A stretch of DNA of 64,000 nucleotides from Candidatus Poribacteria bacterium (GCA_965222225.1 CBDCTK010000002.1:2176001-2240000); one strand, 5' to 3'. Shown: positions 4,770 through 19,641, counted from the first letter of the stretch. Numbers and translations are program-made. The notes: generated from the letters alone by a model not told the origin.

Positions 4770-4842
4770 CCCGACAGTAATCGCATCTAATTTCCCTCTA
4801 CCTCGCTATAGACTGGATGCGCAATGAAAAGAGTGTCTTGGA

Positions 4843-4907
4843 GTTGAGTTTCGCGGGATCTCTATCGCGCTCTTTGTTTGGTCGCTTGATTGCTCAACCC
4901 TACCTAC
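4843..4907 (-). repeat. GTAG-REP (GTAGGTxGGGTTGA..GAAACxCAAC) with a GATCAA..GCGATAG unit in its loop
   Basis: Minus strand reads GTAGGTAGGGTTGAGC-AATCAAGCGACCAAACAAAGAGCGCGATAGAGATCCC-GCGAAACTCAAC. Confidence 0.8.
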
Positions 4908-4974
4908 GGCTCCAGATTGTAAAGTCCTGCCTTCCATTCGGCAATCGAAGAAAGAGAAGAACTCGACGATTTGA

Positions 4975-5061
4975 TGAGGGATCAAGCAAATGAATAATGA
5001 GTGCGATAGAACTCCCATAGAAAATCCCTCTCGCTATCCACTGTTTAATCGCTCGTTAATC
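4975..5061. repeat. GATCAA..GCGATAG motif, forward unit plus inverted degenerate unit
   Basis: TGAGGGATCAAGCAAATGAATAATGAGTGCGATAGAACTCCCATAGAAAATCCC then CTCGCTATCCACTGTTTAATCGCTC. Confidence 0.8.
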
Positions 5062-5103
5062 ACTATGTAATCTCCCTTAATCCTATTGAGGTCAATTCTT
5101 CCC

Positions 5104-5132
5104 TTGACACTTGAATAGCAGATGCGTATAAT
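5104..5132 (+). promoter_or_regulatory. Sigma70-type promoter
   Basis: TTGACA-17bp-TATAAT perfect consensus upstream of the LamG gene at 5262. Confidence 0.85.
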
Positions 5133-5261
5133 TGGAGATTACAGTAGGGTTGTACTGGGAAATCTGTCCTAGTGCAGTCACCCATATAAAACAAAAGATA
5201 GATGGATTGAAACCGGGATAAACACCGGTTCAATCAGAGTCTAATATCTGGAGATTAAACC

Positions 5262-6047
5262 ATGAAAAAAATGTTGTATATCCTCTCTTGTGTCGCATTG
5301 GTGGCAATGCCGATTCTGTCAGCATCCGCCAAGGTAACCTTCCATGCGGCTTTGGAAAGCAAGGATCAGGTGGAAGCGACCGGTGGAGAGGTCGTCGGCG
5401 GCGGTAGTTTCGTTCCGGGCGTTGTCGGGAACGGATTCATGAGTGACGTGGAAGAAGCTGTGGTGCACTATCCCTTCGAGGGCCACATCCCGGGTTATCA
5501 AGAACAAGGGACGCTAGAGTGCTGGTTGGTGCTAGGTTGGGACCTCGACAAGTTCTCCGATGTTACCGATAGAGGCGAAGCCTTTATGTTCTGGTCCTAT
5601 AATAAGGCCGGCACAGACGCCATCGGCCTGATGGTCGGCGGCGGTCATAATACGCCGATTGCTTGGTTCCGCGTTAGGGAAGTCGACGAAGAATGGCATA
5701 GTGCGGCTAGCGAGGAATTGGACTGGAAGGAGGGCGAAGCCCACCACATGGTCGGAACATGGGGGCCAAACGCAGTCAATCTGTACCTGGACGGTGAGTG
5801 GGCCGCAGACGACCCTTACGTCGGAGGGCCCAAGAATCCTATCGAAAGATTGTCTATTAACAACAACGAGTCCGATCCGGCTGCATTCGCAACGTTCTCC
5901 GTCGTGGACGAACTGCGGATTCATGACGTTCAGCTGGACGATGATCAGGTTGGTGCGTTGTACCAAGAGAGAATGGCAGAGGCTTCGACATCTGTAGATC
6001 CAACTGCCAAGCTTGCCACGACGTGGGCAGCAGTGAAGAGACAGTAG
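5262..6047 (+). CDS. Secreted LamG-like jellyroll domain protein
   Basis: Signal peptide; GTLECW, HHMVGTW, LYLDG and VDELRI motifs; C-terminal SVDPTAKLATTWAAVK. Confidence 0.85.
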   Translation: MKKMLYILSCVALVAMPILSASAKVTFHAALESKDQVEATGGEVVGGGSFVPGVVGNGFMSDVEEAVVHYPFEGHIPGYQEQGTLECWLVLGWDLDKFSDVTDRGEAFMFWSYNKAGTDAIGLMVGGGHNTPIAWFRVREVDEEWHSAASEELDWKEGEAHHMVGTWGPNAVNLYLDGEWAADDPYVGGPKNPIERLSINNNESDPAAFATFSVVDELRIHDVQLDDDQVGALYQERMAEASTSVDPTAKLATTWAAVKRQ

Positions 6048-6104
6048 ATAGTCTCGAACGGTTGCGGGCTGAAATTGGTTGAATTTCAACACACCCGTAT
6101 GTAT

Positions 6105-6159
6105 TGGCTCATGTGAACATGATGTGCAGGAGTTTTGCACAAACCGTTAACATGAGCCA
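6105..6159. terminator. Long intergenic stem-loop (terminator or processing signal)
   Basis: TGGCTCATGTGAAC...GTTAACATGAGCCA with inner GTGCA/TGCAC stem, downstream of the LamG gene. Confidence 0.5.
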
Positions 6160-6299
6160 TTCATTTATGTACCCGCAGGACTCACCCAGCTAGTCGCCGG
6201 AGCACCGCGGTTCGGCGATTTTCGCGGAAGAAGACAAGCCTAGGCGTTCGATGTATCGGTGTGTTGCAACCTTGCTGGCATGAGTCCTTGTTTTCTAAT

Positions 6300-7067
6300 A
6301 TGAAAAGAATATGCTATATCATCACTGCCGTCCTGCTTTTGATACCTTTTCTGTCTGCCTCCGCCAAAATAAAATTCCATACAACTTTGGAAAGCGAGGC
6401 CTCCGTCAAGAGAGAAGGTGGGAGCGTCATTGGCGGCGGTCAATTTGTGCCGGGAGTCAGAGAAAATGGATTCATCAGTGACGAGAGATCGGCGGTGGTA
6501 CACTTCCCCATGCACGAGATGTTGGGTAAACATTATCTGGATGAAGGCACCTTGGAATGCTGGTTGATTTTGGGTTGGGACATAGATAAGTTCACCAACA
6601 CAACCGGCAAGGACGAAGCCTTTATGTTCTGGGCGTATAACAGAGCCGAAACAGATGCCATCGGTTTAATGATTGGCGGAAGAAGAAACCATCCGGTTGC
6701 ACAATTCCGTGTGCGGGAAGTGCGTAACGAGTGGCACAACGCCGTAAGCGCCAAGCTGAATTGGAAAGAGGATGAAACCCATCACATGGCTGGAACATGG
6801 GGAGCAGCCGGGCTCCATCTGTATCTTGATGGCGAATTGGCTGCCCAAGACCGTTACAAGGGTGGTCCCGCCAATATTATTGAACGGCTGTCAATAAACA
6901 ACAACGAAACTGATCCGGCTACATTTCCCACATACTCGATCGTGGATGAATTGAAGATTCATGACGAACAGTTGCCCGCCCGCGCAATTCCTGATTTGAT
7001 GACCTTATCCGTAGAGCCGGGGGCAAAACTCGCCACAACGTGGGGCGGCATTAAGAAGATCCGGTGA
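6300..7067 (+). CDS. Secreted LamG-like jellyroll domain protein (tandem paralogue)
   Basis: Colinear with 5262-6047 (EAFMFW.YN, ERLSINNNE.DPA.F); ends SVEPGAKLATTWGGIKKIR. Confidence 0.85.
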   Translation: MKRICYIITAVLLLIPFLSASAKIKFHTTLESEASVKREGGSVIGGGQFVPGVRENGFISDERSAVVHFPMHEMLGKHYLDEGTLECWLILGWDIDKFTNTTGKDEAFMFWAYNRAETDAIGLMIGGRRNHPVAQFRVREVRNEWHNAVSAKLNWKEDETHHMAGTWGAAGLHLYLDGELAAQDRYKGGPANIIERLSINNNETDPATFPTYSIVDELKIHDEQLPARAIPDLMTLSVEPGAKLATTWGGIKKIR

Positions 7068-7108
7068 TGCCCGGGTGACATCCTAACTCTTAAGGAATAT
7101 CTTTCGAT

Positions 7109-8350
7109 ATGAACCAACCATTCTTCGAACAGACTCGTGTATTCGACCCGGTGCCGGGGCAGACAAAAAAGAGCAATACCTATCTGGAGGTGACCAACTC
7201 CGGCGCGGTTATCGCCTTCGGCACCAAGTTGCCGACTGCTCGCATGCCCGGCGGCGCCGACCACGGATTTCCCTGGATGCATCTTCGAGCACGCAGCGTC
7301 AACAGCGGTCGTAGTTGGACGCTTGAGGAGATGAACTGGTGGGAGCCCGAGAAAAGAGGTTTGCTAGCCAGTGTTGTTGACCGCAGCACGGGCGAAATTT
7401 TTATGTTTACACAAGGCACTTGGCCCCTTCAGGACGATCACGGTCAGCCGCTCTCCGAGAGCTGGCTCATCGCCAATTATCACAAAGGGCGTCAGATGGG
7501 CGCGTGCTTGACGATGGAACGCAGTGTGGACGATGGCCGCACGTGGACTTCAACCGACATCTCGGAGCAATTTTACACCTATCCGGGGGCTGGATTGGCA
7601 TGGTTTATCGGGACCGGCATCCAACTCCAACGCGGCTCACACCGGGGACGGTTGGTAGTGCCGGGTAGATACTTTACCGGGAATTGGAAGCAGGTAGACC
7701 CTTCCAAGCATAATATCATCTACGATCACCCCGCACTGGGGGATGTCTATGACGATGGTGAAGGAGAAATCGCGCAAGTTCTCGACCATGAAGCGCATAA
7801 CATGGTCATTTACAGTGACGACCACGGTGAAACGTGGCATTGGGGTGGGAGTTCACAGGGCCATTGCGGCGAAGCGTGTATCGTTGAGTTATCCGACGGC
7901 TCGATTTATATGAACAACCGCAACCACGATCCGAGAACGATGGGTTACCGTTCCTGGTGCATTAGCCGGGATGGCGGCGAAAGTTTCACCGAGTTTGGAG
8001 TAGACCGAACGCTTATTGAAAACCGCTGTCATGCGGCACTGATGCGCTATTCATACCCGAACGACAATGAACCGGGTTGCGTCCTTTTTTCCAATCCGGC
8101 TGTGCACGAGGGAAAGAGCCAATTGCACCCCCGGGGAGGACGGGCTGGTCAACGTCGCGACCAGACAGTGCGCGTGAGTTTCGACGATTGCAAGACTTGG
8201 CCGATATCGCGGCGAATTAGTGAAAATGCGTCGTATTCATCACTAGCGGTGTTGGCGGACGGCACCATCTTATGCGCGTACGACGTGTACGTCTGCCGTT
8301 TCAACCTCGCCTGGTTGAAGCTCGATCAGTCCGGCTTGGCGTCAATTTAA
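7109..8350 (+). CDS. BNR/Asp-box sialidase-like (GH33-like) hydrolase
   Basis: Asp boxes SVNSGRSW, SVDDGRTW, SDDHGETW, SRDGGESF, SFDDCKTW; GRLVVP; SYSSL. Confidence 0.8.
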   Translation: MNQPFFEQTRVFDPVPGQTKKSNTYLEVTNSGAVIAFGTKLPTARMPGGADHGFPWMHLRARSVNSGRSWTLEEMNWWEPEKRGLLASVVDRSTGEIFMFTQGTWPLQDDHGQPLSESWLIANYHKGRQMGACLTMERSVDDGRTWTSTDISEQFYTYPGAGLAWFIGTGIQLQRGSHRGRLVVPGRYFTGNWKQVDPSKHNIIYDHPALGDVYDDGEGEIAQVLDHEAHNMVIYSDDHGETWHWGGSSQGHCGEACIVELSDGSIYMNNRNHDPRTMGYRSWCISRDGGESFTEFGVDRTLIENRCHAALMRYSYPNDNEPGCVLFSNPAVHEGKSQLHPRGGRAGQRRDQTVRVSFDDCKTWPISRRISENASYSSLAVLADGTILCAYDVYVCRFNLAWLKLDQSGLASI

Positions 8351-8394
8351 TCGCCGACCTTTATCTGGATTCTTCGGCTTTACAGAATCGCGTA

Positions 8395-8449
8395 AGGGGT
8401 AGATAGCGGTGTTGTGATTTCAAAAACATCTATCTACCCCTCATTTTTT
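8395..8449 (+). terminator. Stem-loop followed by T tract
   Basis: AGGGGTAGATAG...CTATCTACCCCT then CATTTTTT. Confidence 0.55.
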
Positions 8450-8499
8450 GTCTGCACATTCATTACGGGTGATTAAGGTCTGTTGACATTTGACATCAC

Positions 8500-8534
8500 G
8501 TAGGTTGGGTTGAACCGGAACCGTGAAACCCAAC
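8500..8534 (+). repeat. GTAG-REP, short-loop (empty) copy
   Basis: GTAGGTTGGGTTGAACCGGAACCGTGAAACCCAAC. Confidence 0.8.
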
Positions 8535-8582
8535 GCTTAATCCAACTGAAGCGCGAAACGAGAGTTGGCGGAGCAGCAACCT

Positions 8583-8781
8583 GTAGGGGTTGGGTTTCCC
8601 AACCCATTGGGCGAGAGGAAGATCCCTATCGCACGGGATTTAATATCGCAGAATTGGCTATCGCGGTCGTTATTCACTCCCTTGGTCTCCTTATTCAGTC
8701 GCTGGATCGCTATTCACTCAATTGATCGTTCGTTTGAGAGATTTACTATCGCACTCACTATTCGTTCGTTTGATCCCCTAC
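8583..8781. repeat. GTAG-REP doublet interrupted by a tandem array of GATCAA..GCGATAG units
   Basis: GTAGGGGTTGGGTTTCCCAACCC...GGGCGAG then about 4 minus-strand units (8658-8777), closed by CCCCTAC. Confidence 0.8.
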
Positions 8782-8881
8782 GATTGGGTATTTATCGACG
8801 AATTGCGGACACAACTCGCATAAATGTCAACATGCCCTAGTTTTCGCCCGCTTAGAAAAGGAGCCGCGTATTACGGTTGAT

Positions 8882-10915
8882 ATGAACAAATATCTTTACC
8901 TCCTTCGGCAGAGGTCAACCTTTACATACCTAGTCATCGCGCTGCTCGTCGCTCACCTACTGCCACTCTGGGTATTCAAATACTTCCCGTCGCAAGACGG
9001 CGCCTCCCATATCTACAACGCCTATCTACTGAAAGAATACAACAACCCCGCCATGTATAAGGTTCGGGAGTGTTTCGAGCTCAACCTAACCCTCTTCCCG
9101 AACTGGTTTTCCCATGCCCTTATGGCTGGCTTGATGTTCCTCGTGTCCCCCCTTGTCGCGGAGAAAATCCTGCTGACTCTTTGCATCGCATTGGCGCCGT
9201 TATCGCTTTTTTACTGCTTGCGCGCGATTGCCGGAGGCAATGCTGAGACGTCATTCGGATCGGGCAACCAAATTCTCGGTTTGATCGGATTCCTTTTCGG
9301 ATATAACTATCTGCTGCACATGGGCTTCTACAACTTCGCAATCAGTTTCCCGGTTTTCTTCTTTCTCCTCGGCTACTGGTGGCGGCACCATGAGTCCATG
9401 TCACCCGCGAATATCGGCGTGTTTTACGTCCTCATGATTCTGTTGTACTTCTGTCATATTTTTTCTTACGGGCTGATGTTGGTGACACTGTCCATCTGTG
9501 CGTTAAGGTTGATTGTCACCCCGAGGAAACTGCTGGTTTTCGCCGGCTATATGCTTCCGGCGGGATTCATTATGATCAACTACCTGCTCAATGACGCCTC
9601 GGATAAGTTGTATCGATATTGGAGTTCCAAGGAGCTATGGGACTACTTTCTGCAGACAAAGGCACTCGTGTACTTCAACGAGAGTCACATCTGGGCAAAT
9701 TACGTGCTGCTCGGATTCATTGGGATACTTTTCCTGTGGACTTTGTGGAAGGACAAAATTCAACCGAGACGATGGATGGACGGACGCGACGTGTTCCTAA
9801 TTCTTTCTATCGTTCTCGTGATTGCGTATTTCATATCGCCCCGGTGGATAGGCGATGGAGGCTATATCAGTGAACGCATTCACATGTTTTGGATTCCCAT
9901 TCTGCTGCCGTGGCTCAACCTCGATTTTCACAAAGCGGCGAGATGGTGCGCCGTTGGATTAATGGTTTTCCTCTCCGCCGTTCACTTGGGATATACCTGC
10001 CGGGACTACTACAACTTTAACCGTTCAATGGATGACTATACTTCCGCGTTGGATACACTGCCGGACCACATTGTCTTCGATAATATGGGGCCCGACAACG
10101 ACGACTGGGATGACAGGTGGCAGACTGAAGTTCCGCATCCCCATTGTAACCTCTACCTCTACTACATGATACCCGGAGACAGGGTATATATTGGCAATTA
10201 TGAAGCGCAATTCAACTATTTCCCGCTTAATTTTAAGGATGACAAGAAGCGGAATGATTATCCGGGTGGATACATCAATTACCGGCTGGCATGGAACGTT
10301 GGGGAAAACAGCCCTCAACTGGACAAGTATTGGGGCGACTATGGTATTGTCCACTCAACCCCGGAATCTCGGAAATATTCTAAACCGTACAGAATTTTAC
10401 GGCATGGGTATCATCGCGAGAATACCCAAACCTGGGAAAAGTACGCAAACGTCGGGGAGGTAAACTTTCAGATGCAAGCTAGCGATGCGTCAAATCAGGC
10501 TGTTCCAGACGACATGTCTATGCCCGTATTCGTCGATACACGGTATCAGACCGGTAGTTTCGGATGGGACACGGCTTATCCCAGACATTCTTTCCAGAAC
10601 ACCAGTGCGCCGGTCGGGTCTGGCGTTTGGGATACGGAGGATGCGGCTTTCAGGATTGACTTGCCAAATGGAGAGTATGAAGTAACGTGCCGCTTCCAAT
10701 CGAACGACGGGAAAGCGCATCGCATCGAACTGTACGCAAATGGAAAGCGCGAGATCCAGATTGCGGCTCCCGGCAGCAACGAGGTAGTTGAGGGGCGATT
10801 TACCGCTGAAGTGAAAGACGGAACGCTCATCCAAGTTATCCATGCCGCTGGCAGCGAGCGCCGCGCGCACTGGGCATGGAGCGGATTCAACCTGCATCGA
10901 ATCGAGGCCAATTAG
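8882..10915 (+). CDS. Multi-pass membrane protein, GT-C glycosyltransferase-like, with C-terminal beta-sandwich (carbohydrate-binding-like) domain
   Basis: About 11 hydrophobic segments; PSQDGASH loop after TM1; GFYNF; C-terminal FRIDLPNGEYEVT and EVKDGTL. Confidence 0.55.
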   Translation: MNKYLYLLRQRSTFTYLVIALLVAHLLPLWVFKYFPSQDGASHIYNAYLLKEYNNPAMYKVRECFELNLTLFPNWFSHALMAGLMFLVSPLVAEKILLTLCIALAPLSLFYCLRAIAGGNAETSFGSGNQILGLIGFLFGYNYLLHMGFYNFAISFPVFFFLLGYWWRHHESMSPANIGVFYVLMILLYFCHIFSYGLMLVTLSICALRLIVTPRKLLVFAGYMLPAGFIMINYLLNDASDKLYRYWSSKELWDYFLQTKALVYFNESHIWANYVLLGFIGILFLWTLWKDKIQPRRWMDGRDVFLILSIVLVIAYFISPRWIGDGGYISERIHMFWIPILLPWLNLDFHKAARWCAVGLMVFLSAVHLGYTCRDYYNFNRSMDDYTSALDTLPDHIVFDNMGPDNDDWDDRWQTEVPHPHCNLYLYYMIPGDRVYIGNYEAQFNYFPLNFKDDKKRNDYPGGYINYRLAWNVGENSPQLDKYWGDYGIVHSTPESRKYSKPYRILRHGYHRENTQTWEKYANVGEVNFQMQASDASNQAVPDDMSMPVFVDTRYQTGSFGWDTAYPRHSFQNTSAPVGSGVWDTEDAAFRIDLPNGEYEVTCRFQSNDGKAHRIELYANGKREIQIAAPGSNEVVEGRFTAEVKDGTLIQVIHAAGSERRAHWAWSGFNLHRIEAN

Positions 10916-11195
10916 ATTATGGTTTGCGCAGTCGGACACCCAAAGCCTAGCAGTAAAATCTTCGATTGAATTGAAGATGGGATCTTCATCTATTGCCTGT
11001 TTCCACACAAAACAGCATGTCAGACTGTCCACGGGCGAGCGCACGATTAGCGGGACGCGCAATGAGTAGGAGCAATCTCCAAGTCGCGAGCCCTGTGGCG
11101 AGCAAAGCTTGCAAGCGAAGGTGCGAAGGAAAGTAATCCATGAATAGGTTGTGGATTCGTCAACCGGTTCACTGCATGGCTGCGACGCACTCCGG

Positions 11196-12704
11196 CTATC
11201 GCGGAAGGGCGCGGGGTTCATCCCATTCCTGCCGCGCGCGATAGAACACCGGCGCATAAGACTCGGCATAAAGCGGTTTGCTCAAGGGACCCACGATAGG
11301 ACCAAACCGATCCTGCGAATATGGTTGCGGGATCGGCGTGCCGAGCAGCGCTTCAATTCGCGCTCGACGGTCATTCACCACATCCGGATGCTGATCGTGC
11401 ACGTTCTCTCGCTCATCTGGGTCCGCTGACAAGTTGTACAACTCGGGGTTCGAATCCTCGAAATCCCAGCCTGTTGCGTAGACCCAGTGCTCGTCGCGAA
11501 TCGAAACACGACCGCCCCACGCCGTAGTGATGTACGGGCGCAGCGCTTCTTCCTGGCCAGTAACCAGCCGCCAAGCGCTTTGCCCATCCATCTGCTCGAC
11601 CCCATCTCCTACCCCCGCTAAATCAAGGATGGTCGGACCAAGGTCGTAGTTTTGCACCCAGGCTTCAATGTCGCGGTCCCGCCATCCTTCGCTCGGGTGC
11701 CGAATCGTTAAATTCTGCTGCGTGTTGAACGGATGCAGCTCGGTGTTGCGTTTACCCCAGCCCGTGTGATCAGCTAGCTCGGTGCCGTGGTCGGTGAAGA
11801 AGATGATTACCGTGTCATCCTGCAGTCCCAGTGCATCGAGTTGATCGAGAAAGCGGCCCACATGCGCATCCGTAAAGGTGATTTCGCCTTTGTAACAGGC
11901 GGTATAGTAATCAATATAATCCCGCGTTTTGACATCAAGATCCGCGCCCCTCATATCCGAAAAGAATGAGCGATCAAGAATATGGCGAGGCTGTTGGTAT
12001 ATCGGACCTTGCCACGAGTCGTCGTAGCGGTGCACATAGTCCAGCGGCGGATCGAACACCTCGTGCGGCTCGAAGCAGTCGATCCAAAGAAAGAAGGGCG
12101 CATTCGACGAATTGTCGCGCAGCCATCGGCTGGCTCTGGCGAAAACTTGGGCACCGAACCAGTCCGATTCCTCTTTTCGGTCGCGTATATTGTGTAAATG
12201 TTGAAGGAAATGGCTTCTGCCTGCCAGTTGAGAAGCATCGGGTTCGGCAGGTTCGTAAGCTCCGAAATAGTCCTTGAACAGTTGACTGATGAGATTCCAA
12301 GAACCGGTGCGCCAGCCATCACCTCCCGCGCCTCGTATGTGGTCCCACGTCATGAAACCACGGAGGTGATTCATGTTGGGCTTGAACAGATGGGGCGTGT
12401 CGGCTATCAAGCCCGTAGCGTAACCGTGTTCCAACAGAATCTCGGCAATGGTTGGGTACTCGTCCGGAATCTCGTGCCATCCGTAGTAGCCGTGAATGTA
12501 CGGGAATCCACGCATGCCGGTGAAACAACCGTTTCGGACTTGGACAGTCTGACCGGGTTCCGTGAAGCAGCGGTTGAATCGCGCAGATTCAGCGGCGAGC
12601 GCGTCAAGCGCCGGCGTGGCGACATCGCTAAACCGCTTGTTTGGCCCCACGATGTCGGCGCGGAATGTGTCGAGGCAAATGACTACGATGTTCAGGTGTT
12701 CCAT
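11196..12704 (-). CDS. Sulfatase/alkaline-phosphatase superfamily hydrolase with a non-canonical nucleophile motif
   Basis: NIVVICLDTFRAD, PFFLWID.FEPHE.FDPP, TDHG, ELYNL..DPDE..N; motif TVQVR instead of CxPxR. Confidence 0.85.
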   Translation of the reverse strand: MEHLNIVVICLDTFRADIVGPNKRFSDVATPALDALAAESARFNRCFTEPGQTVQVRNGCFTGMRGFPYIHGYYGWHEIPDEYPTIAEILLEHGYATGLIADTPHLFKPNMNHLRGFMTWDHIRGAGGDGWRTGSWNLISQLFKDYFGAYEPAEPDASQLAGRSHFLQHLHNIRDRKEESDWFGAQVFARASRWLRDNSSNAPFFLWIDCFEPHEVFDPPLDYVHRYDDSWQGPIYQQPRHILDRSFFSDMRGADLDVKTRDYIDYYTACYKGEITFTDAHVGRFLDQLDALGLQDDTVIIFFTDHGTELADHTGWGKRNTELHPFNTQQNLTIRHPSEGWRDRDIEAWVQNYDLGPTILDLAGVGDGVEQMDGQSAWRLVTGQEEALRPYITTAWGGRVSIRDEHWVYATGWDFEDSNPELYNLSADPDERENVHDQHPDVVNDRRARIEALLGTPIPQPYSQDRFGPIVGPLSKPLYAESYAPVFYRARQEWDEPRALPR

Positions 12705-12762
12705 AGTTGCGATAGTCCTTTCGACCCATCTTACTCATCTAACATGAAATGTGCAGTTTCTT

Positions 12763-12868
12763 GTAGGGATCAAACGAGTGAATAGCGAGTAAGATTTTCT
12801 ATCGCCCTCCTTATCCAGTCGGTTAATCGATAGAGATCCCCTTAACCGAGTGAATAACGAGGGATCCC
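12763..12868. repeat. Patchwork of forward/reverse GATCAA..GCGATAG units starting at GTAGG
   Basis: GTAGGGATCAAACGAGTGAATAGCGAGT / CTATCGCCCTCCTTATCCAGTCGGTTAATCG / ATAGAGATCCCC / TTAACCGAGTGAATAACGAGGGATCCC. Confidence 0.85.
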
Positions 12869-13012
12869 AAAGAATTCCCATTACGTTACACCATTATCGT
12901 TTGCTATGAATCGGGGCAACTTGCGCAAGTCCTAATGTAGTTTGCAAACGGACGGTTTCAATGGCACCATCGCAGAACACAGCGGTATGGCATGTCTGAC
13001 CGCTGGTTCACA

Positions 13013-14140
13013 CTATGCGAGGGTATCATCAGCCCCATCCGTGAGCCATTCGAGATCGAACCGCGCGAGGGTAAGCCCATCGTAGCCGCTTCCAAAACCA
13101 TGGTCATAGAGGCAGCAGATGCTCATATCGGGGGCAACACAAATACCCGAATAAGACGAGTGGTCTGCGTGGAGAACTTTTCCGGCGTTCCAAGTGCGGC
13201 ACTCATCATAGCTGATTCGAACGGTCATGCGCTCACGCCGGGTGCTGCTGGCAGGATTGGAGAAGAGAACACGGTTTTTGTCATGCGAAGTTTCGTCCGT
13301 GAAACGAGTCACGCCCGCATGGCAGATGGGTTCCGGCAGCGTTTCATCCCAGCCGAACTCCGAGAAGGACAAGCCATCATCATGACTCCAAGCATAGGCA
13401 CGTCGATGGTCGCCCACGTAGTTCCTGCAGTTCAAGTATAAGGCACCGTCATGCGTCTGAACGATGTTCGATTCGTTCGTGCCCGCTTGCGCCACGCCGC
13501 CTATGTGCCAATGTTCGCCGTGGTCGTCGCTGTAGATGACGTGCGAATGGCCAGATGCCGTCAGCGTTGCCACAGAGGACTTCACGTCTTGGTAACCGCC
13601 GGCTACGCCTTGAACATGATCGCACGGGATGACGAGCCGTCCGCTTTTCAATTGGATGCCGCCCCCGGGGCCCGTCGCATACCACGTCCACGAAGGGGCT
13701 TTTACCTCGTCTGTAATCTCCCGTGGCGTGTCCCACGTTTTGCCATCGTCTTTGCTCGACGTAACCCAGACCGTGCGCGGGGCTTTGCCTTCGACAATCA
13801 GGTTTTCGGGACCGTCCGCAAAGTTTTGGCAAAACACCAGCCAGATTGTTCCGGTGTCCCTATCCACTACCGGGGCAGGATTGCCATCGGTGTCCGGACC
13901 GGTGCGGACTGCAATCTGCATAGGTTCCCACGTGCGCCCATTGTCGAAACTGCGTCTGAGGCCGATGTTAATATCGCCAGAGTCGCCACCCATTACCGTT
14001 GGATCACTGTTTCTGGCTTCACAGAACGCCAGCATAGTACCGCTCACAGATCTTGTCAGGACGGGAGTGGTATAGGCGCGATATCCGCCTTCGCCGTTAT
14101 TAAATAATTGTGTCTGTTCAATCATAGTCTTATCACACAC
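13013..14140 (-). CDS. BNR/Asp-box sialidase-like (GH33) hydrolase
   Basis: LAFCEAR, SFDNGRTW, GNPAPVVD, YATGPG.GIQL..GRLVIP, five Asp boxes; RIP motif replaced by YTTP. Confidence 0.9.
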   Translation of the reverse strand: MCDKTMIEQTQLFNNGEGGYRAYTTPVLTRSVSGTMLAFCEARNSDPTVMGGDSGDINIGLRRSFDNGRTWEPMQIAVRTGPDTDGNPAPVVDRDTGTIWLVFCQNFADGPENLIVEGKAPRTVWVTSSKDDGKTWDTPREITDEVKAPSWTWYATGPGGGIQLKSGRLVIPCDHVQGVAGGYQDVKSSVATLTASGHSHVIYSDDHGEHWHIGGVAQAGTNESNIVQTHDGALYLNCRNYVGDHRRAYAWSHDDGLSFSEFGWDETLPEPICHAGVTRFTDETSHDKNRVLFSNPASSTRRERMTVRISYDECRTWNAGKVLHADHSSYSGICVAPDMSICCLYDHGFGSGYDGLTLARFDLEWLTDGADDTLA

Positions 14141-14433
14141 CCAAATGTTGAGATATACAGTTTATGTTGGATTAGCCTGCGCTGTGCTAAGACTAGCGGC
14201 AAAACTTCCAAACATTGAATTCCATGATTTCAATGAATACGTCGTTTTCTCTCAAAATCAACGACTACCATCTGTGGTCATGCGCGCAAACGATTACCGC
14301 GCTATATTCTTTATAAGCACACCACAAAAACCATTGGTTGTCAAGCGTTTTAGATGAGTTGGAGAATCGGTCACAATTTGGGGATCGATCCGAAGGGTGC
14401 GGCACGTTTCAGAACATGTCGACAACATCGCTA

Positions 14434-14717
14434 TGAACCTGTTTGAAAAGTACATTTGTAGGATGCGATCAAAGGAATGAATAATGACCGCGATAGAGAT
14501 CCCCCTGCGCATCAGTCTCTAAAAGCCCTGGAAGGGCGACAGGTGTATAGCAATGCCGCAACCCCACTCACTTAAGCCCCAGCGTGGGATCAAGCGAGCG
14601 AATAGTGAGTGCGATAGAAATCCTGACAGGTGTATTGCCGGATGACGACAAAAACACGGAAAACCTTTTATCAAATCACCAAATGTGAGTTCGCAACCTA
14701 TTTTTCAAACAGGATCT
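14434..14717. mobile_element. MITE-like element with GAxCCTGTTTGAAAA terminal inverted repeats and nested REPs
   Basis: Left GAACCTGTTTGAAAA, right TTTTCAAACAGGATC; related to 19194-19370. Confidence 0.65.
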
Positions 14718-14885
14718 AAAGAACGGCAATGTCCGTGCAGAAATAGAGGAGGATGTCGGCGCCAACGCGGTGTCGCCAGACCAATGACAAACTTTAGCGG
14801 TAGTCTCGTCAGCACAAAGACTCTTGACTCGCGTGATTGATAACGGCTATGGACGTTATCGTCGCGGTGTGGAATTCCAAAAGGC

Positions 14886-14914
14886 TTGACAGCGTAAGGT
14901 GTGAAGTATATAAT
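14886..14914 (+). promoter_or_regulatory. Sigma70-type promoter of the nfeD-floA operon
   Basis: TTGACA-17bp-TATAAT perfect consensus. Confidence 0.85.
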
Positions 14915-15026
14915 AGTGTCGTGTAATTCGAACGTTTTGATTGCAGATTGATGTCAGACCGTCTCTGAGCAACCCAAAAACTATTCCACCTCACTCGCCT
15001 GCAGGACTTAGGAAGAGGTGATTGCC

Positions 15027-16556
15027 ATGTCTAGCAAAACACGTTTGACAAGCCACATATTAATAATGCTCGGCGTTAGCCTGCTAGCCATGTCATTGGT
15101 TTCATCGGCTCAAGATGACGCCTTGGTGCACATTGTCAACATACGGAATCAGATTGGTAGCGGGATAAGCGTCTACATCAGCAACGGCATTGAACGCGCC
15201 GAAACAGCCAATGCGGATGCCATTGTTTTTGATGTTGATACCCCCGGTGGTCGAGTGGATTCCGCGGTCGATATAATTGACGCCATTCAAGACACGGAGG
15301 TGCCAACCATCGCCTTTGTGAATAGAGAGGCAATCTCCGCAGGCGCAATGATTTCCATCGCATGCGATCAAATTGTGATGGTGTCTGGTGGAACGATTGG
15401 CGACTCCGCGCCGGTCTCGATTCAGGGAGAAGAGGCTGGGGAAAAAGCGGTTTCTTATATTCGCAAGACAATCAAATCAACCGCGGAACGACAAGGGCAC
15501 AATTTCCATATCGCAGTCACTATGGTTGACAAGAAACGGGTACTTGTCAGAATGGCAGACGGCGAAATCGTTTCGTTCAGGCCTGACACTTATCAAGAAA
15601 AGAGGCAAAACGGAGAGGAGATGGAAGTCATCTCCGCCGAGGGCGAGTTGTTGACTTTGACCACGGACGAAGCCTTAGAGTATGGTTTCGCGCATGGGCG
15701 CGCGGATACGATTGATGAGTTACTGGCGATGTACCGGATCGTCGAGATTGATGGGGCCAGGAAAGCACTGACAGAAGAAGCCATAGCGCAGAAGCAGGAA
15801 GAACTTGGCACCGCAAGCATGCAGTTCATTAAATCACTTGAAGGCGCGGCAACCGACGAAGCCATGGTTTCGTTGGCGGATCGGATTGTCATTTTTCTCA
15901 CGAGCCCCCTCATTAGCTCGCTCCTGCTCTCCCTCGGAATGCTTGGATTATGGATAGAAATTCAGTCCCCAGGATTCGGCCTTCCCGGGATGCTCGGTCT
16001 GCTATGTCTAGGAATCTTCTTCGGCGGACACATGCTGAGCCAAATTGACGCCCAGTGGGCAGCGCTGGCTTTTGTTCTGGGATTAGGATTAATTGTGGTA
16101 GAGGTTTTCATCTTACCGGGATTTGGCATTGCGGGGATTTCGGGCATCATTCTTATGTTCGGCGGTATATTTTATGTATTCAAGAGTGCCTATCAGTTTG
16201 AAACGGCAATTCTGGCGTTTTCATCTGTTATCGTCCTCACCGCCATCGGTGTGATTGCCGCGTTTTATCTCTTCCCAAAGACGCGCGCATGGAAGCATTT
16301 CGCTTTGGCAACCGAGATGAGTTCGGATATTGGCTATCATTCCGCAGGGGATGAAGATTTTCAGAGTTACATCGGACAGACCGGAACAGCGATTACACCC
16401 TTGCGTCCGGCTGGCGCAATCCGCCTCGCAGGTAAGCGCGTTGATGTGCTTACCGCAGGCGATTTCATCCCTTCTGAAACCCCCGTTAAAGTGATAGAAG
16501 TGGAAGGCTCAAAGGTCTTCGTTGAAGCCTTGGATGAGGCAACCAACACAGCGTAA
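15027..16556 (+). CDS. nfeD: NfeD family membrane-bound ClpP-class serine protease (YqeZ/NfeD1b-like)
   Basis: DTPGG, AISAGA, LLTLT..EA, PGFG TM motifs and C-terminal TPLRPAG OB-fold. Confidence 0.9.
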   Translation: MSSKTRLTSHILIMLGVSLLAMSLVSSAQDDALVHIVNIRNQIGSGISVYISNGIERAETANADAIVFDVDTPGGRVDSAVDIIDAIQDTEVPTIAFVNREAISAGAMISIACDQIVMVSGGTIGDSAPVSIQGEEAGEKAVSYIRKTIKSTAERQGHNFHIAVTMVDKKRVLVRMADGEIVSFRPDTYQEKRQNGEEMEVISAEGELLTLTTDEALEYGFAHGRADTIDELLAMYRIVEIDGARKALTEEAIAQKQEELGTASMQFIKSLEGAATDEAMVSLADRIVIFLTSPLISSLLLSLGMLGLWIEIQSPGFGLPGMLGLLCLGIFFGGHMLSQIDAQWAALAFVLGLGLIVVEVFILPGFGIAGISGIILMFGGIFYVFKSAYQFETAILAFSSVIVLTAIGVIAAFYLFPKTRAWKHFALATEMSSDIGYHSAGDEDFQSYIGQTGTAITPLRPAGAIRLAGKRVDVLTAGDFIPSETPVKVIEVEGSKVFVEALDEATNTA

Positions 16557-16644
16557 GACAGGATTCAATTTACACAGCGCACTCGGCCTCTCTATGCCCT
16601 TGAAGGAAAGATTGAATTTCTGCGACAATCTCCTATAAAAGGAC

Positions 16645-17133
16645 GTGCTTATGCCGCCGCTACCCCTCTTTCTCCTCGGCTTAGGGGTTTTACTGCTATT
16701 CATCGAAATCATTCTGCTTCCCGGTTTTGGTGCGGCTGGCGTGCCGGGAATTATTCTCATTTGCGTTGGTATCGGGATTGTTTGGATGGAACACAGTTGG
16801 GAAACCGCATCGCTTTACGCCGGTGGGACAGTTATCCTTATTATCCCACTTGCTATCTTGGGATTGTGGCTCGCTCCTCGAACTAGACTTGGACGAACCG
16901 TCATTCTCAAGGCCGCTCAAAATAGCGCGGACGGTTTCCAAGCTCCACCACAGGAATTAACGACGTTAGTCGGCCACTCCGGTCAGTCCGTGTCTCCCCT
17001 CAGACCGGCAGGAGTCGTCTTAATTGATGGCAAACGGGTGGATGTAGTCACCAATGGAGAATTCATCCAGCCCGAAACAGAAGTGGAAGTAGTTGCCGTA
17101 GAAGGAAGCCGGGTTGTTGTCCGGAGTCGGTAA
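16645..17133 (+). CDS. Short NfeD family protein (TM + OB-fold only)
   Basis: EIILLPGFG, SPLRPAG, RVDVVT.GEFI, VEGSRVVV. Confidence 0.85.
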   Translation: MLMPPLPLFLLGLGVLLLFIEIILLPGFGAAGVPGIILICVGIGIVWMEHSWETASLYAGGTVILIIPLAILGLWLAPRTRLGRTVILKAAQNSADGFQAPPQELTTLVGHSGQSVSPLRPAGVVLIDGKRVDVVTNGEFIQPETEVEVVAVEGSRVVVRSR

Positions 17134-17159
17134 ACACTCTTCAAATAAGGAGATTCTAG

Positions 17160-18065
17160 ATGGATGACATTACAGGTTTTACAGCGATTATCGCCGTATT
17201 GATACTGATTTTCCTGTTAGTTTTCTTTTGGTTTGTGCCCGTCGGTCTGTGGATTGCCGCCCAAGCGGCAGGCGTACGAATCCGCATAGTCGGCGACTTG
17301 GTCGGGATGCGTTTACGACGGGTGACCCCAAACGTAATAGTCAACGCGCTGATTAGCGCGACGAAAGCAGGTCTGACAGTTAAAACTACCGATCTTGAAG
17401 CCCACTACCTTGCGGGCGGAAACGTGTTGCGAGTCGTGAACGCGTTGATTGCCGCGGATAAAGCTAAAATCGACCTCAATTTTCAGCGCGCCACCGCAAT
17501 CGATTTGGCGGGACGCGATGTATTTGAAGCCGTGCAGGTAAGCGTCAACCCTCGCGTCATCACGACGCCGCGCATTAGCACGGTTGCGCTTGATGGCGTT
17601 GAGTTGATTGCCGTCGTGCGAATCACCGTCAGGACAAACATCAACAGGCTCGTCGGTGGTGCAGGAGAAGAGACAATCCTTGCGCGAGTCGGGGAGGGCA
17701 TTATCAGCGCAATTGGCGCCTCGGAGACTTATGAGGATGTCCTTGAAAATCCCGACGTTATCTCCAAGACCGTGTTGGATCGAGGCTTAGACGCGGGCAC
17801 CGCCTATGAAATTCTCTCCATTGATATTGCCGATGTCAACGTTGGGAAGAACATCGGAGCTGAACTCCAAGCCGAGCAGGCTGAAGCAGATCTGGTCGTT
17901 GCTCAGGCAAAGGCGGAGGAGAGGCGAGCGATGGCAATCGCGCGTAAGCAGGAAATGACAGCGAACGTGCAAAAGATGCGAGCCGCCGTTGTCGAGGCCG
18001 AGGCTTCCGTTCCACGCGCTCTCGCCGGTGCGTTCCGCGAAGGCACCTTAACATTACCATCATAA
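17160..18065 (+). CDS. floA: Flotillin-like protein FloA (YqfA family), copy 1
   Basis: [44 protein letters not shown]. Confidence 0.92.
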
Positions 18066-18079
18066 AAGGAGGGTTTCAG

Positions 18080-19111
18080 ATGCCGTCAGCTGTTGCCATA
18101 CTTGCGGTTCTTGTTATTGTTTTTCTCATTTTCCTCACCACGTTCGTCCCTATCGGTTTGTGGATCGCTGCGATTGCGGCGAATGTCCGTGTGCGAATCT
18201 TTGGCGATCTGGTTGCCATGCGTTTGCGGCGCGTGCCTCCGAAAGGCATCATAGAGCCCCTAATCAACTCGACCAAGGCGGGGCTAAACCTTTCGCTTGA
18301 TGAACTTGAGGCGCACTATCTCGCTGGCGGAAGAGTTGCCAGTGTCGTCGCAGCGCTCATCGCTGCGGATAAAGCGAACATCTCACTAGGCTTCGCGCAA
18401 GCCGCCGCAATCGACCTTGCCGGTCGCGATGTACTGCAAGCGGTACAGGTCAGCGTCACACCGGAAATTATCGACATTCCCGCCAAGGGAGACAGCCAAC
18501 ACGGAATTACCGCCGTTGCGCGCGACGGCATTCAACTCATCGTCAAGGCACGGGTGACGGTGAGGGCAGACATCGATCGGCTGGTCGGCGGGGCTACCGA
18601 AGAGACGATTAAAGCCAGAGTGGGTGAAGGAATTATCACGACAATCGGCTCTGCGACAAGTCACAAGGAGGTCTTGGAAAGCCCGGTACGCATTTCGGAA
18701 ACCGTGCTCGAAAAAGGACTGTCTGCTGGAACTGCTTTTGAAATCTTGTCCATTGATATCGCCGACATTAACGTGGGCGAGAACGTAGGCGCCAAGCTGC
18801 AAACCGATCAAGCACAAGCCGAGTTGAAAATCGCTCAAGCGAAAGCGGAAGAGCGGCGAGCCCGGGCGCAAGCGGAGGAGGAGGAGAACAAAGCGCTCGT
18901 TGAAGAGATGACCATCACCCTTGTCGAGGCGGAAGCCGAAGTTCCTCGCGCCATTGCCGATTCCTTTGATTCGAGCCGAATGAGCGTCATGGACTACTAC
19001 AATCTCAGAAATATCCTCGCCGATACGGAGATGCGTCAAGCCATTGCTTCATCTGGCGGCGATGGCGAGATTGACACAACTCGATCGTCGCATTCCATGG
19101 GGCTTACGTAG
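18080..19111 (+). CDS. floA: Flotillin-like protein FloA (YqfA family), copy 2
   Basis: [48 protein letters not shown]. Confidence 0.92.
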
Positions 19112-19193
19112 GCAACCGAAGCAGGCTCGTGAGTTCGGCAATTAAGCGGCAGACTTAGCTCATCTTCATTTCGAACCTGTTCAAATCTCCATA

Positions 19194-19370
19194 AGAGCCT
19201 GTTTGAAAATTCATTTCGGGTAGAACTTGTGCCCTGAAACCGATCAAATGAGCGAATAGTGAGTGCGATAGAAATCCTGACAGGTGTATAGCAGGCGACC
19301 ACAAAAGCATGAAAAAGCCGCGCCCAAAGTGACCGAAATTGCTTTGCCACCTATTATTCAAACCGGCTCT
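19194..19370. mobile_element. MITE-like element, second copy
   Basis: AGAGCCTGTTTGAAAAT ... ATTATTCAAACCGGCTCT; contains GCCC..GACAGGTGTATAGC with an internal GATCAA..GCGATAG unit. Confidence 0.65.
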
Positions 19371-19641
19371 AAGTGGTTTGCTCGCTAAGTATAAAGGTAT
19401 AATTTACTGTGACAGTATTCTAGTTAACCGAGTTATATACTGAATGTCTAAAAATTTATCACTGATGAATATATCATAAAGATTTAGAAAGTAAACCACT
19501 AAGTTCGACTTTGTACCTTTAAGCCGAATAACAGACGGTGTCAATCAAGCGTTGAAGAAAAGTGGAAGAGATTTTAGCCATCGGGCCTTTTTGGTTGACC
19601 ATTGAAAAAGTCGGCAGTGGTTTCTGCGACCATGCAGAACG

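Follow-up and report, generated by a model that had tools for sequence, protein, structure and literature searches.

The window, by which we mean the whole 64-kb stretch of DNA analysed here, derives from the genome of a Candidatus Poribacteria sponge symbiont and carries a short repeat, referred to as the unit, of 34-37 nt (~35) with the consensus GATCAA-NN-GA-NN-GAATA-NN-GA-NN-GCGATAGAGATCC. With up to two mismatches, its core GCGATAGARATCC occurs 14 times in the window compared to 3.34 ± 1.49 times in shuffled sequences, and 0 of 100 shuffles reached 14. The features described below were assigned from the sequence and, where indicated, by nhmmer.

At 4843-4907 (minus strand), a long GTAG REP, GTAGGTAGGGTTGA...GAAACTCAAC, carries a unit at ~4855-4895 (nhmmer match 4895-4855, E = 1.1e-05), and a solitary unit in divergent orientation to it is present at 4976-5011 (plus strand, nhmmer E = 1.5e-05). 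An empty long GTAG REP, GTAGGTTGGGTTGA-ACCGGAACCGT-GAAACCCAAC, lies at 8500-8534 (plus strand); the left arm of this family has 195 matches genome-wide (at most two mismatches). Read on the minus strand, 8583-8781 is an array of one full unit and truncated or nested pieces (nhmmer matches 8777-8746, 8730-8707, 8688-8658 and 8649-8626), with GTAGGG at its head and a GGGTTGGGAAACCCAACCCCTAC hairpin after the array. The array at 26790-26891 (plus strand) is headed by GTAGGAG and contains a plus-strand unit (26803-26835, nhmmer), an inverted partial unit, the tail GATAGAGATCCC and the closing sequence ...TTCCCTAC. At 12765-12841, a plus-strand unit is split near the step ...GAGT(G)^CGATAG by an inverted full unit (nhmmer 12830-12796, minus strand), while at 49101-49157 (minus strand), beyond the range covered by the original prediction, a unit adjoins a partial one (nhmmer E = 7.7e-05 and 1.4).

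Plus-strand positions 14430-14713 form a MITE-like composite of ~285 bp with REP-A, two REPs of the H3 family and two units, and its ends are inverted copies of the 12-nt CCTGTTTGAAAA. The REP-A variant at 14458-14513, GTAGGATGCG^[unit 14463-14504]CTGCGCATC, is filled at host site 1 (nhmmer E = 8.6e-09). An empty H3 REP, AGCCCTGGAAGGGC-GACAGGTGTATAGC, occupies 14524-14551, and at 14575-14634 an H3 REP is filled by unit 14585-14624 after the right-arm G-run (nhmmer E = 7.3e-10; junction class AGCCCCAGCG[ggg]TGACAGGTGT). A second MITE-like composite at 19183-19365 (plus strand) carries unit 19240-19278 (nhmmer E = 1.6e-08), then GACAGGTGTATAGC.

The sequences quoted in the original prediction all lie where it had placed them, except that 29485-29512 (minus strand), given there as the same as 14524-14551, is an empty H3 family member with compensatory stem changes, AGCGCCAGCGGCGC-GACAGGTATATAGC. 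The prediction had also treated REP-A and H3 (its types 2 and 3) as separate hosts, which is correct genome-wide, but in the window both belong to the single composite at 14430-14713. The right arm GGGC, described as replaced in the H3 copies, keeps its G-run: the unit (GATCAA) follows ...GTGG, and about two bases (C and the next) are replaced. This junction had been set ~3 bases too early.

Sequence, stem and strand of the unit

Genome-wide, nhmmer returned 966 unit matches (E ≤ 0.01); 936 of these align without gaps. The core occurs exactly 340 times, and 816/936 units are intergenic as judged by crude ORF calling. Every sampled species of the genus harbours hundreds of copies, and the same consensus was recovered in 10/10 genomes of genus g1 and 4/4 of genus g4.

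The stem of the unit consists of 2 bp, a tandem G-A/A-G mismatch and another 2 bp, enclosing a 5-nt GAATA loop. Canonical pairing at model pairs 12-28, 13-27, 16-24 and 17-23 was found in 883, 868, 872 and 900 of the 936 units, respectively; each pair is realised by three to four pair types with a mutual information of 0.54-1.11 bits, and 842 and 879 units retain the mismatched G-A and A-G, respectively. Wobbles of the G-T and T-G type (431) greatly outnumber A-C and C-A (62), and therefore one strand of the unit is read single-stranded. Nearest-neighbour folding of three canonical units (top strand) did not give a stable hairpin as DNA (z = +0.07 to +1.27), and the fold of a fourth, degenerate unit is different (z = -1.45 as DNA). 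RNA folding z values ranged from +0.11 to +0.40, none being negative, and the RNA minimum-energy fold recovers the covarying pairs. A search of Rfam gave no family match at the gathering score.

A MITE has terminal inverted repeats 15-30 bp long and duplicates its target site. The two ends of the unit have GATC alone in common, with neither MITE-type terminal inverted repeats nor a target duplication, and we rejected this assignment. CRISPR arrays, which consist of regularly spaced identical repeats with unique spacers between them, were also rejected as an identity of the unit arrays, as the units in these abut, nest or are cut short with no spacers between them, and the 936 units comprise 754 distinct cores.

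The association with REPs noted in the original prediction extends across the genome: GTAG is located within 20 nt upstream of 268/933 units, compared to 5.6% of random intergenic positions, while downstream CTAC is not enriched near units (5.4% versus 7.0% at random). This GTAG belongs to the host REP, mostly at a distance of 9, 8 or 16 nt, and the unit is always on the strand of its host's GTAG. The strand bias of the unit is tied to replication, as read from GC skew, and not to gene direction. The C-rich strand carries 593/837 units (Fisher p = 8e-34; 125 to 52 by 20-kb bins), independently of the direction of the flanking genes (181:53 and 167:78).

Empty and filled host sites

Units reside in several GTAG REP families, in one non-GTAG REP (H3) and in other units. 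The host GTAG REPs exhibit the GTAG tag, covarying hairpin and high copy number typical of REPs. At 140 sites in the genome, GTAGGGTG and CCAGCCT stand 11 nt apart, mostly as empty hairpins, and a covarying C/G variant, GGTGGGCA..GCCCACC, exists as well.

For 307/936 units we identified an empty look-alike (paralogous) site elsewhere in the genome, in agreement with the claim that the motif is inserted in palindromic repeats and that empty and filled copies coexist. The insert extends from ATCAA as far as GATC(C)(C), and the insertion point is mostly a G^C step; in 145/307 cases the A of ATCAA is precisely its first base, and the majority of these inserts end at model positions 40-44. Of 150 unique empty contexts, 90 have G at -1, 115 have G or C at -2 and 64 have C at +1. 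Host bases lost numbered 0, 1, 2, 3, 4 and 5 in 55, 46, 72, 37, 17 and 24 of the 307 units, and six or more in 30; part of the 1-3-base losses (155/307 junctions) may be paralogue SNPs beside the junction. Target duplications were not seen at these junctions, and shared bases occurred in only 26/307, so that the predicted loss of host bases without duplication holds genome-wide. Insertion was thought to destroy the hairpin but often spares it, because the G^C step that is hit lies in one of the arms.

The junctions fall into 235 classes. REP-A site 1 holds 10 stem variants among 35 units, REP-A site 2 10 among 19 and the H3 site 13 among 23; at each REP-A site, identical flanks surround at least ten different variants. 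Of the multi-copy 34-nt cores, 50/91 occur in two or more unrelated contexts, and the commonest core (24 copies) occurs in three contexts only. The many junction classes, the variants per site and the cores in unrelated hosts indicate that most filled copies do not stem from a few amplified composites, let alone from the one or two that the original prediction had named as its possible undoing. Furthermore, 74/936 units split another unit, and the halves of split units pair across the insert in 30/38 cases compared to 23.0 ± 2.3 upon permutation (30 was reached in 3/2000 permutations). One composite class, GTAGGGTGC-[unit with AAGGAATGAATAATGACT]-CCTGCGCACC, exists in ~20 near-identical copies and shares its junction with 14458-14513. 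Inverted CCTGTTTGAAAA end pairs occur 144 times in the genome, and 51 of them enclose a unit; once formed, composites may also be amplified whole.

Across species, G000, G001 and G005 have a filled H3 site just downstream of the IS200-like gene, and in G002, G004, G009 and G012 this site is empty. An orthologous empty/filled site, proposed as a check in the original prediction, thus exists (filled in three species, empty in four); strain-level empty/filled polymorphism of units was not demonstrated. The unit content of orthologous spacers is wholly different between species. The counterpart of block 8464-8873 is a repeat-free spacer of 62-84 nt in G005, G002 and G004, and the ~600-nt block at ~19135-19760 is missing from G005, G001, G009 and G004, where the spacer measures 22-54 nt. 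The composite 14430-14713 is missing from the orthologous spacer of G005, and pieces of it are found in each of the 10 genomes of the genus.

A possible route of movement

The unit is a discrete element with fixed ends, a covarying strand-specific stem and many separate insertions into GC-rich hairpin repeats. The original interpretation, in which the motif was deposited at nicks or breaks, is therefore partly supported: 145/307 inserts share one start and the stem covaries strand-specifically, and the constant orientation to the host GTAG, the replication-linked strand bias and the identical copies in unrelated hosts also speak against mere deposition.

Probably, the unit is a non-autonomous single-strand mobile element that is moved in trans by a Y1 (HUH) transposase. 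Movement would take place at the replication fork with the unit in single-stranded form, and one or more Y1 (HUH) tyrosine transposases encoded in the genome would do the cutting and joining. As these enzymes may bind REP hairpins and nick close by with low sequence specificity, we propose that REPs, including those flanking Y1 genes, are preferred landing sites. The nested units and REP hosts would then provide a readable record of how mini-elements spread.

The search for RAYT and RT genes suggested by the original prediction yielded five Y1_Tnp matches, but none that tracks the unit. Two of the five Y1 genes are flanked on either side by units at most 100 nt away, compared to 21/4338 genes overall. 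These units sit in REPs that belong to the Y1 genes themselves, namely H3 and a REP of the GTAGTAGGCA type present on both sides of a RAYT-like gene, so that the adjacency may reflect REP targeting rather than a cognate pair. In three genera (g1, g4 and g6), the IS200-like Y1 gene has H3 REPs as its conserved flanks, and units are found at some orthologues only, inside H3. Across genomes, neither the IS200-like family nor two others tested tracked the unit: IS200-like homologues are present in 7/7 genomes of the unit-free genus g6 and were not found in 2/4 unit-bearing g4 genomes (E ≤ 1e-20), the two other families are equally patchy, and among 80 loci of relatives of the IS200-like protein a unit was within reach in only three. 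TnpB was not found, and the sole RT-like gene is sub-threshold and does not adjoin units.

A role of Y1 (HUH) enzymes in unit movement is thus what we infer, and several observations run against it. Described Y1 transposition is seamless, whereas 1-3 host bases are commonly lost here; no Y1 family tracks the unit, and folding gives no stable hairpin for the three canonical units. If GC skew is read in the usual way, the favoured C-rich strand is also contrary to the preference for the lagging-strand template that PMC6006769 and PMC3333891 give for IS608-type elements.

Healing of breaks, the idea of the original prediction, or template switching, in which replication stalls or breaks at a hairpin and the nascent strand copies a unit located elsewhere via 1-2 nt of microhomology before returning, would need no dedicated enzyme. 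Such a process would fit the hairpin hosts, the few bases lost without target duplication, the junction G and C, which match the bases flanking every donor copy, the link of the unit strand to replication skew and the lack of a co-occurring enzyme. We nevertheless regard it as unlikely given the sharp ends (145/307 starting at one base) and the fixed orientation to the host GTAG; moreover, non-stem positions are under strong selection and the stem covaries across two families of bacteria, which implies recognition by a protein. That composites alone move, with a few ancestral REP-plus-unit fusions amplified along with the MITE-like element bearing them and the unit itself never inserting, is suggested by the ~20 near-identical copies of the GTAGGGTGC...CCTGCGCACC class, the restriction of the commonest core to three contexts, the 51/144 end pairs holding a unit and the co-occurrence of type-2 and type-3 hosts in one composite of the window. 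It is hard to reconcile with 235 junction classes, at least ten stem variants within identical flanks at each REP-A site, 50/91 cores in unrelated contexts and nested units whose split halves still pair, and we consider it decidedly improbable.

We give very little weight to the unit being a functional cis-element (an RNA hairpin or protein-binding site) under selection with only incidental REP association. Covariation with a G-T excess (431 versus 62), the consensus shared by 10/10 g1 and 4/4 g4 genomes, the intergenic location (816/936) and the covarying pairs in the RNA minimum-energy fold would all be expected of such an element. Yet orientation follows GC skew and not the flanking genes (181:53, 167:78), Rfam offers no family at the gathering score, unit content differs completely between orthologous spacers of different species, copies are nested and truncated, and none of the three canonical units gave a negative folding z on its top strand (that of the degenerate fourth was -1.45 as DNA).

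Comparison with known systems

Elements of the IS200/IS605 type always insert 3' of one conserved tetra- or pentanucleotide, with seamless junctions. PMC6006769 and PMC3333891 describe them as lacking terminal inverted repeats and target duplications, as strand-specific and tied to replication, and as having cleavage sites chosen by a guide beside the hairpin foot. The unit shares the absence of terminal inverted repeats and of target duplication, the strand specificity and the replication-tied orientation, the latter with a sign opposite to IS608. Unlike these elements, it has one weak hairpin instead of two subterminal ones, appears to target a loose G^C step instead of a fixed tetranucleotide, often goes along with the loss of a few host bases and shows the opposite strand bias, and no TnpB was found.

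Insertion sequences targeting REPs were reportedly described by Tobes and Pareja in 2006, and J Bacteriol 181:6929 is said to report an IS inserting into the palindromic units of BIMEs. Such elements are full-length, encode their own transposase and produce target duplications, unlike the unit. REP hairpins also appear as insertion targets of IS in PMC3733652.

REP/BIME sequences with their RAYT/TnpAREP (REPtrons) resemble the unit in being short (20-40 nt), high-copy, intergenic and species-group-specific, in keeping their hairpin by compensatory changes with G-T pairs and in forming mosaics with other short motifs. As set out in PMC6006769, REPs have GT[AG]G (or CGTC) 0-2 nt 5' of the hairpin foot and a basal stem of 7-20 bp; the stem is taken as fully paired and the loop as 2-5 nt long. 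The E. coli TnpAREP binds single-stranded REP DNA, cleaves a neighbouring dinucleotide with low specificity and performs strand transfer in vitro (PMC3333891). For another TnpAREP, the GTAG guide selects the two dinucleotides that are cleaved (PMC8266576), and such cutting and joining in vitro is proposed to diversify BIMEs (PMC3333891; PMC8266576). The unit has the size and copy number of a REP (20-65 nt, many copies, mostly intergenic). Unlike REPs, it starts with GATCAA and lacks both a basal stem of 7-20 bp and a tag of the GT[AG]G or CGTC type, and it inserts into other REPs. It is the conserved flank of no Y1 gene, whereas the REPs of a REPtron flank a RAYT gene in inverted orientation and are conserved there among relatives.

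The small dispersed repeats (SDRs) of Nostoc and relatives (Elhai et al. 2008, Genome Res 18:1484) are reportedly 21-27 nt long with a shared hairpin showing compensatory changes, and are said to lie within one another and within other repeats and to have no known transposase. The unit belongs to another phylum and is unrelated in sequence. REPs inside small palindromes are also reported in PMC3733652, namely GTAG-23 of T. roseum in CCGSSCC..GGSSCGG, GTAG-15 of A. variabilis and CGTC-1 of H. neapolitanus, and the T. roseum genome holds hundreds of empty target palindromes. In these cases, as for the unit, a short palindromic repeat lies within another palindrome. However, their guests are GTAG- or CGTC-tagged and their hosts untagged, whereas in this genome an untagged guest occupies tagged REPs, and the unit goes beyond those cases in its self-nesting, its mapped junctions and its replication-strand bias.

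The unit family and its covarying stem

Within the 64 kb of the window, the core GCGATAGARATCC occurs 14 times with up to two mismatches, as compared to 3.34 ± 1.49 matches in dinucleotide shuffles, none of which (0 of 100) reached 14. The exact 13-mer core is present in 340 copies in the genome (5.70 Mb in two contigs, with the window at C2:2176001-2240000). With a profile built from these exact-core copies, 966 units were retrieved from the genome at E ≤ 0.01, of which 411 also passed E ≤ 1e-5; 936 of the 966 aligned without gaps. Their consensus is GATCAA-NN-GA-NN-GaATA-NN-GA-NN-GCGATAGArATCCc, and the information content drops steeply at either end. The copies are diverse, as the 936 units comprise 754 distinct 34-nt cores.

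The unit carries a covarying stem. The model pairs 12-28, 13-27, 16-24 and 17-23 show 0.71, 0.95, 1.11 and 0.54 bits of mutual information, and standard pairs occur at these positions in 883, 868, 872 and 900 of the 936 units, respectively, with three to four pair types each. The positions between the covarying pairs are occupied by G-A in 842 and by A-G in 879 of 936 units. Non-Watson-Crick combinations in the stem amounted to 431 for G-T plus T-G versus 62 for A-C plus C-A, so that it is the purine-rich strand alone on which the pairing is read. Nearest-neighbour folding of the hairpin strand of three canonical units did not yield a stable hairpin, either as DNA (z between +0.07 and +1.27) or as RNA (z between +0.11 and +0.40); a fourth, degenerate unit (4853-4897) adopted a different fold with a z of -1.45 as DNA. 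The RNA minimum-energy fold consists of exactly the covarying pairs together with an invariant ATC/GAT helix. We infer from these models that the structure of the unit would matter in a protein-bound state. A search of the whole window against Rfam at gathering thresholds gave no match.

A 30-nt scaffold pattern, allowing at most one mismatch, was used to follow the family into other Poribacteria; the reversed pattern served as control and gave zero matches in every genome. There were 826 scaffold matches in this genome, 529-1216 per species in the nine others of the genus and 184-202 in all four species of one genus from a different family of the same order. One further genome gave three matches, and the remaining 26 genomes gave none.

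Insertion into hairpin repeats and into other units

The unit is a discrete element with fixed ends that has repeatedly been inserted into hairpin repeats and into itself without target duplication. Look-alike sites in which the two flanks of a unit meet within 14 nt (11-nt exact anchors) exist at other places in the genome for 307 of the 936 units, and the proposed coexistence of empty and filled copies was confirmed; all sequences quoted in the original prediction were found at their positions. In 145 of the 307, the insert begins with the A of ATCAA, and most of these end at model positions 40-44 (...GATC, GATCC or GATCCC). The loss of host bases noted before was seen in most of the 307 cases, with one, two or three bases missing in 46, 72 and 37, four or five in 41 and at least six in 30, but no base was lost in 55. 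Bases common to both sides, as a target duplication would leave them, occurred in another 26, ten of which belong to one repeat-internal artefact class. Part of the losses of 1-2 nt may be paralogue differences adjoining the junction. Among 150 unique empty contexts, the insert is directly preceded by G in 90 and directly followed by C in 64, and position -2 is occupied by either G or C in 115; this loose S-G^C step is what the insertions target.

The hosts comprise GTAGGGTGCG^CACTGCG^CACC, which offers two insertion sites with identical local sequence, GTAGGCGGGG^CAT..GCCCCGCC, the AGCCCC-type repeat AGCCCCnnnGGGG^CG (referred to as H3), GTAGGAGCGAT.. along with further GTAG-headed hairpins, a long GTAGGTTGGGTTGA REP and, by self-nesting, other units. 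Of 933 units, 268 are preceded by a GTAG at a distance of at most 20 nt, versus 5.6% of 40,000 random intergenic positions. The left arm of H3 is found upstream of 71 of the 933 and its right part at 63, compared to 0.8% and 0.4% at random positions. Downstream CTAC is not enriched near these units (5.4% versus 7.0% at random). Thus, units are enriched at REPs and sit almost always on the GTAG strand, and their orientation relative to GTAG is fixed. The flanking arms can pair over at least 6 bp in 175 of 936 units (11.9% with shuffled partners), and hence only a minority lies between two intact arms; most insertions are located inside an arm near the loop or at the foot. The association with REPs that had been anticipated was thereby borne out across the genome, while the placement of the motif in the hairpin loop was too narrow.

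Some of the individual sites have to be read differently than before. The copy at 29485-29512, regarded as the same empty copy as one elsewhere in the window, does belong to the family, but as the stem-compensated variant AGCGCCAGCGGCGC. Replacement of the right arm had been proposed for the filled copies of the AGCCCC type; there, only about two bases are replaced and the G-run is kept. Two supposedly separate host types at 14430-14713 turned out to be one composite of about 285 bp with inverted CCTGTTTGAAAA ends. This composite represents a MITE-like family with 12-nt inverted ends CCTGTTTGAAAA...TTTTCAAACAGG (14430-14713 and 19183-19365), whose cargo is a GTAG REP, two H3 REPs and often units. 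The genome holds 144 such end pairs with a median span of 238 nt, 51 of them with a unit, and parts of the composite are present in all 10 genomes of the genus.

Independent insertions and amplified composites both occur. The junctions fall into 235 classes, and 50 of the 91 multi-copy cores (at least two copies) appear in two or more unrelated contexts, which argues against a descent of all filled copies from one or two composites. Single host sites have also received different units: 35 units with 10 stem variants at site 1 and 19 with 10 at site 2 of the GTAG repeat REP-A, 23 with 13 in H3 and 11 with 6 in a further repeat, REP-B. The composite of REP-A site 1 and one particular unit, on the other hand, exists in about 20 near-identical copies, and the most frequent core is found 24 times but in no more than three contexts. 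Self-nesting was found for 74 of the 936 units, which split another unit, in 50 cases after the G preceding CGATAG. Where the split falls inside the stem of the host unit (16 cases), the separated halves pair at 30 of 38 positions as compared to 23.0 ± 2.3 after permutation (30 was reached in 3 of 2000 permutations), a test that is supportive only because several cases are copies of one composite. Inverted nesting is seen at 12765-12841 and 26790-26891; at 8583-8781, a full unit and truncated pieces form an array that does not parse as a perfect nest.

Spacer turnover and strand bias

The spacers that harbor these repeats differ widely between relatives. In place of a 411-nt mosaic (8464-8873), three other Poribacteria genomes (G005, G002 and G004) have a spacer of 62-84 nt that is free of repeats, and in place of a block of about 600 nt (~19135-19760), four (G005, G001, G009 and G004) have 22-54 nt. 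The repeat content of spacer 4778-5097 is different in each of five relatives and unalignable. Spacer 14141-15017 is replaced in G005 by an unrelated one without a unit at E ≤ 1, and the flanking genes align at 87-92% identity. As flanking genes are about 10% diverged, such cross-species comparisons show turnover but do not order single events. The stretch is present in 20 of 24 public sequencing runs. Window positions 4000-20000 were compared with four of these 24 (X3, X7, X9 and X14), in which the short-read contigs break at repeats; the joints listed have sides of 21-29 nt and resemble other repeat copies. Contigs of X14 contain a 22-nt insertion after position 11065, in or near a sulfatase-like gene region, which was not seen in the other three runs. 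A further repeat of about 265 nt (19499-19763), ending near the hairpin GGCGGGGCAAGATGCCCCGTCTAC, has many copies of 72-90% identity in G005, G004, G001, G002 and G009 and is missing from the orthologous spacer in four relatives. The flotillin-like FloA genes at 17160-18065 and 18080-19111 form a tandem paralogue pair (470 and 472 bits, cut-off 393).

According to a crude ORF call, 816 of the 936 units are intergenic. Between co-directional genes, units are 181 sense and 53 antisense when the genes lie on the C-rich strand, and 78 sense and 167 antisense when they lie on the G-rich strand; 75 of 115 units in convergent and 88 of 123 in divergent spacers are on the C-rich strand. Overall, the hairpin strand is the C-rich strand in 593 of 837 units (71%, Fisher p = 8e-34), and counting by 20-kb bins gave a split of 125 to 52 in its favor. 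Empty GTAG REPs of the commonest family have a like bias (104 of 138). As the strand of the unit ignores transcription and goes with the C-rich strand, the bias points to a replication-linked process at the DNA level. By the usual reading of GC skew, the favored strand is the leading-strand template; passages in two publications describe the opposite preference for IS608-type elements (PMC6006769, PMC3333891). The smoothed skew of contig C2 flips its sign at about 16 places, though the assembly consists of two contigs, which suggests many rearrangements or assembly joins; the orientation of units and REPs still tracks the local skew across C2.

Candidate enzymes, mechanism and known systems

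The proposed search for RAYT and reverse transcriptase genes gave five Y1 transposase matches (Y1_Tnp, PF01797) and a single RT-like protein of 670 aa, which stays below the cut-off (RVT_1 26.8 bits, cut-off 29.6) and does not adjoin units, the nearest being about 1.5 kb away. TnpB (PF07282) had no match. Judged by its scores, the best Y1 gene (C2:3080255-3080728, 157 aa) would belong to the IS200/IS605 family (NF033573 65.8 bits, cut-off 55; REP_Tyr_transpos 30.6, cut-off 80). Units lie on either side, no more than 100 nt away, of both this gene and a truncated paralogue, an arrangement shared by only 21 of 4338 genes overall. In three genera, every orthologue of the IS200-like Y1 gene is enclosed by a pair of inverted H3 REPs, which makes H3 the cognate repeat of this gene. 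The unit immediately downstream of the gene sits within H3; this site is filled in three genomes (G000, the source genome, G001 and G005) and empty in four (G002, G004, G009 and G012), an empty/filled difference between orthologous sites that probably goes back to a single ancestral event. A role of the unit as cognate REP of the IS200-like gene was rejected, since the conserved flanks are H3 REPs. REPs of the GTAGTAGGCA type lie on both sides of a second, RAYT-like gene, and one of them also holds a unit. None of the three Y1 families profiled over 41 genomes tracks the unit.

In-frame TAG stops recur in the Y1 transposase genes of numerous genomes from the order (C2:3088883-3089344 in G000, and in G001, G004, G005, G009, G027, G030, G035 and G037) and could be due to decay, GTAG-repeat insertion or read-through. 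The IS200-like gene occurs twice in G001 (C1:1635189 and 1638233, 3 kb apart), both copies sharing 91% identity with the protein of G000, which has just one such gene besides broken paralogues at other loci.

How the unit moves may be approached from published TnpAREP behavior in vitro. As described in one study, TnpAREP requires single-stranded REP DNA with GTAG, cleaves with low specificity at a dinucleotide close by and also carries out strand transfer, activities proposed as a source of BIME diversity (PMC3333891); a passage on another TnpAREP reports two dinucleotides, chosen by the GTAG guide (PMC8266576). By analogy, the unit would move as single-stranded DNA, and Y1 (HUH) enzymes might cut and join it in trans at the REPs they bind. 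Three observations count against this mechanism: no Y1 family co-occurs with the unit, 1-3 host bases are often lost, and the strand bias has the opposite sign. Alternatively, as suggested in the original prediction, filled sites could be generated by break healing or template switching, which fits less well, as it accounts more poorly for the sharp unit ends and for the conserved, covarying stem. Along the line of Y1 activity in trans, a more specific scenario is conceivable, although we consider it rather unlikely in its full form: the unit, a minimal element (about 35 nt) whose single hairpin is interrupted by G-A and depends on protein, would live as a hyperparasite on REP systems. It would use any REP-bound Y1/RAYT enzyme to insert at G^C steps of the GTAG strand, and would accumulate on the leading-strand template with a polarity opposite to that of IS608-type elements.

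For research on HUH transposases and the spread of REPs, the family provides unusually clean material, namely a discrete guest whose ends are fixed, empty/filled pairs of hosts that number in the hundreds and a fixed orientation to the host GTAG. Self-nesting puts events in time order, and the strand bias separates replication from transcription. A Y1/HUH route makes testable predictions on the strand used, the step cut and the form of the circle junction; if the hyperparasite scenario is true, the thousands of junctions mapped across the genus would, for the first time, give a natural record of REP-class cut-and-paste in vivo. These uncultured sponge symbionts rebuild their intergenic DNA fast, with spacers of about 60 nt in some species being mosaics of 400-600 nt in others, which matters to the assembly and comparison of their genomes.

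Very small nested repeats with compensated hairpins were reportedly described in cyanobacteria by Elhai in 2008. The motif string of the unit was not found in the literature searched, nor, apart from one unrelated review, was a paper on REP elements in Poribacteria; in the entries listed, 'repeats' in Poribacteria genome papers appear to refer to proteins. One study still calls the spread of REP-class repeats poorly understood (PMC8266576). For three species, another describes REPs that lie within small palindromes, of which unoccupied copies exist at other places in the same genome, and insertion sequences that target REPs are already known (PMC3733652). Unlike GTAG/CGTC REPs, the unit has neither the tag nor a stem of 7-20 bp, and it is not a conserved flank of RAYT genes. 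The unit works like a mini-element of the REP class, yet it falls outside the definition of GTAG/CGTC REPs.
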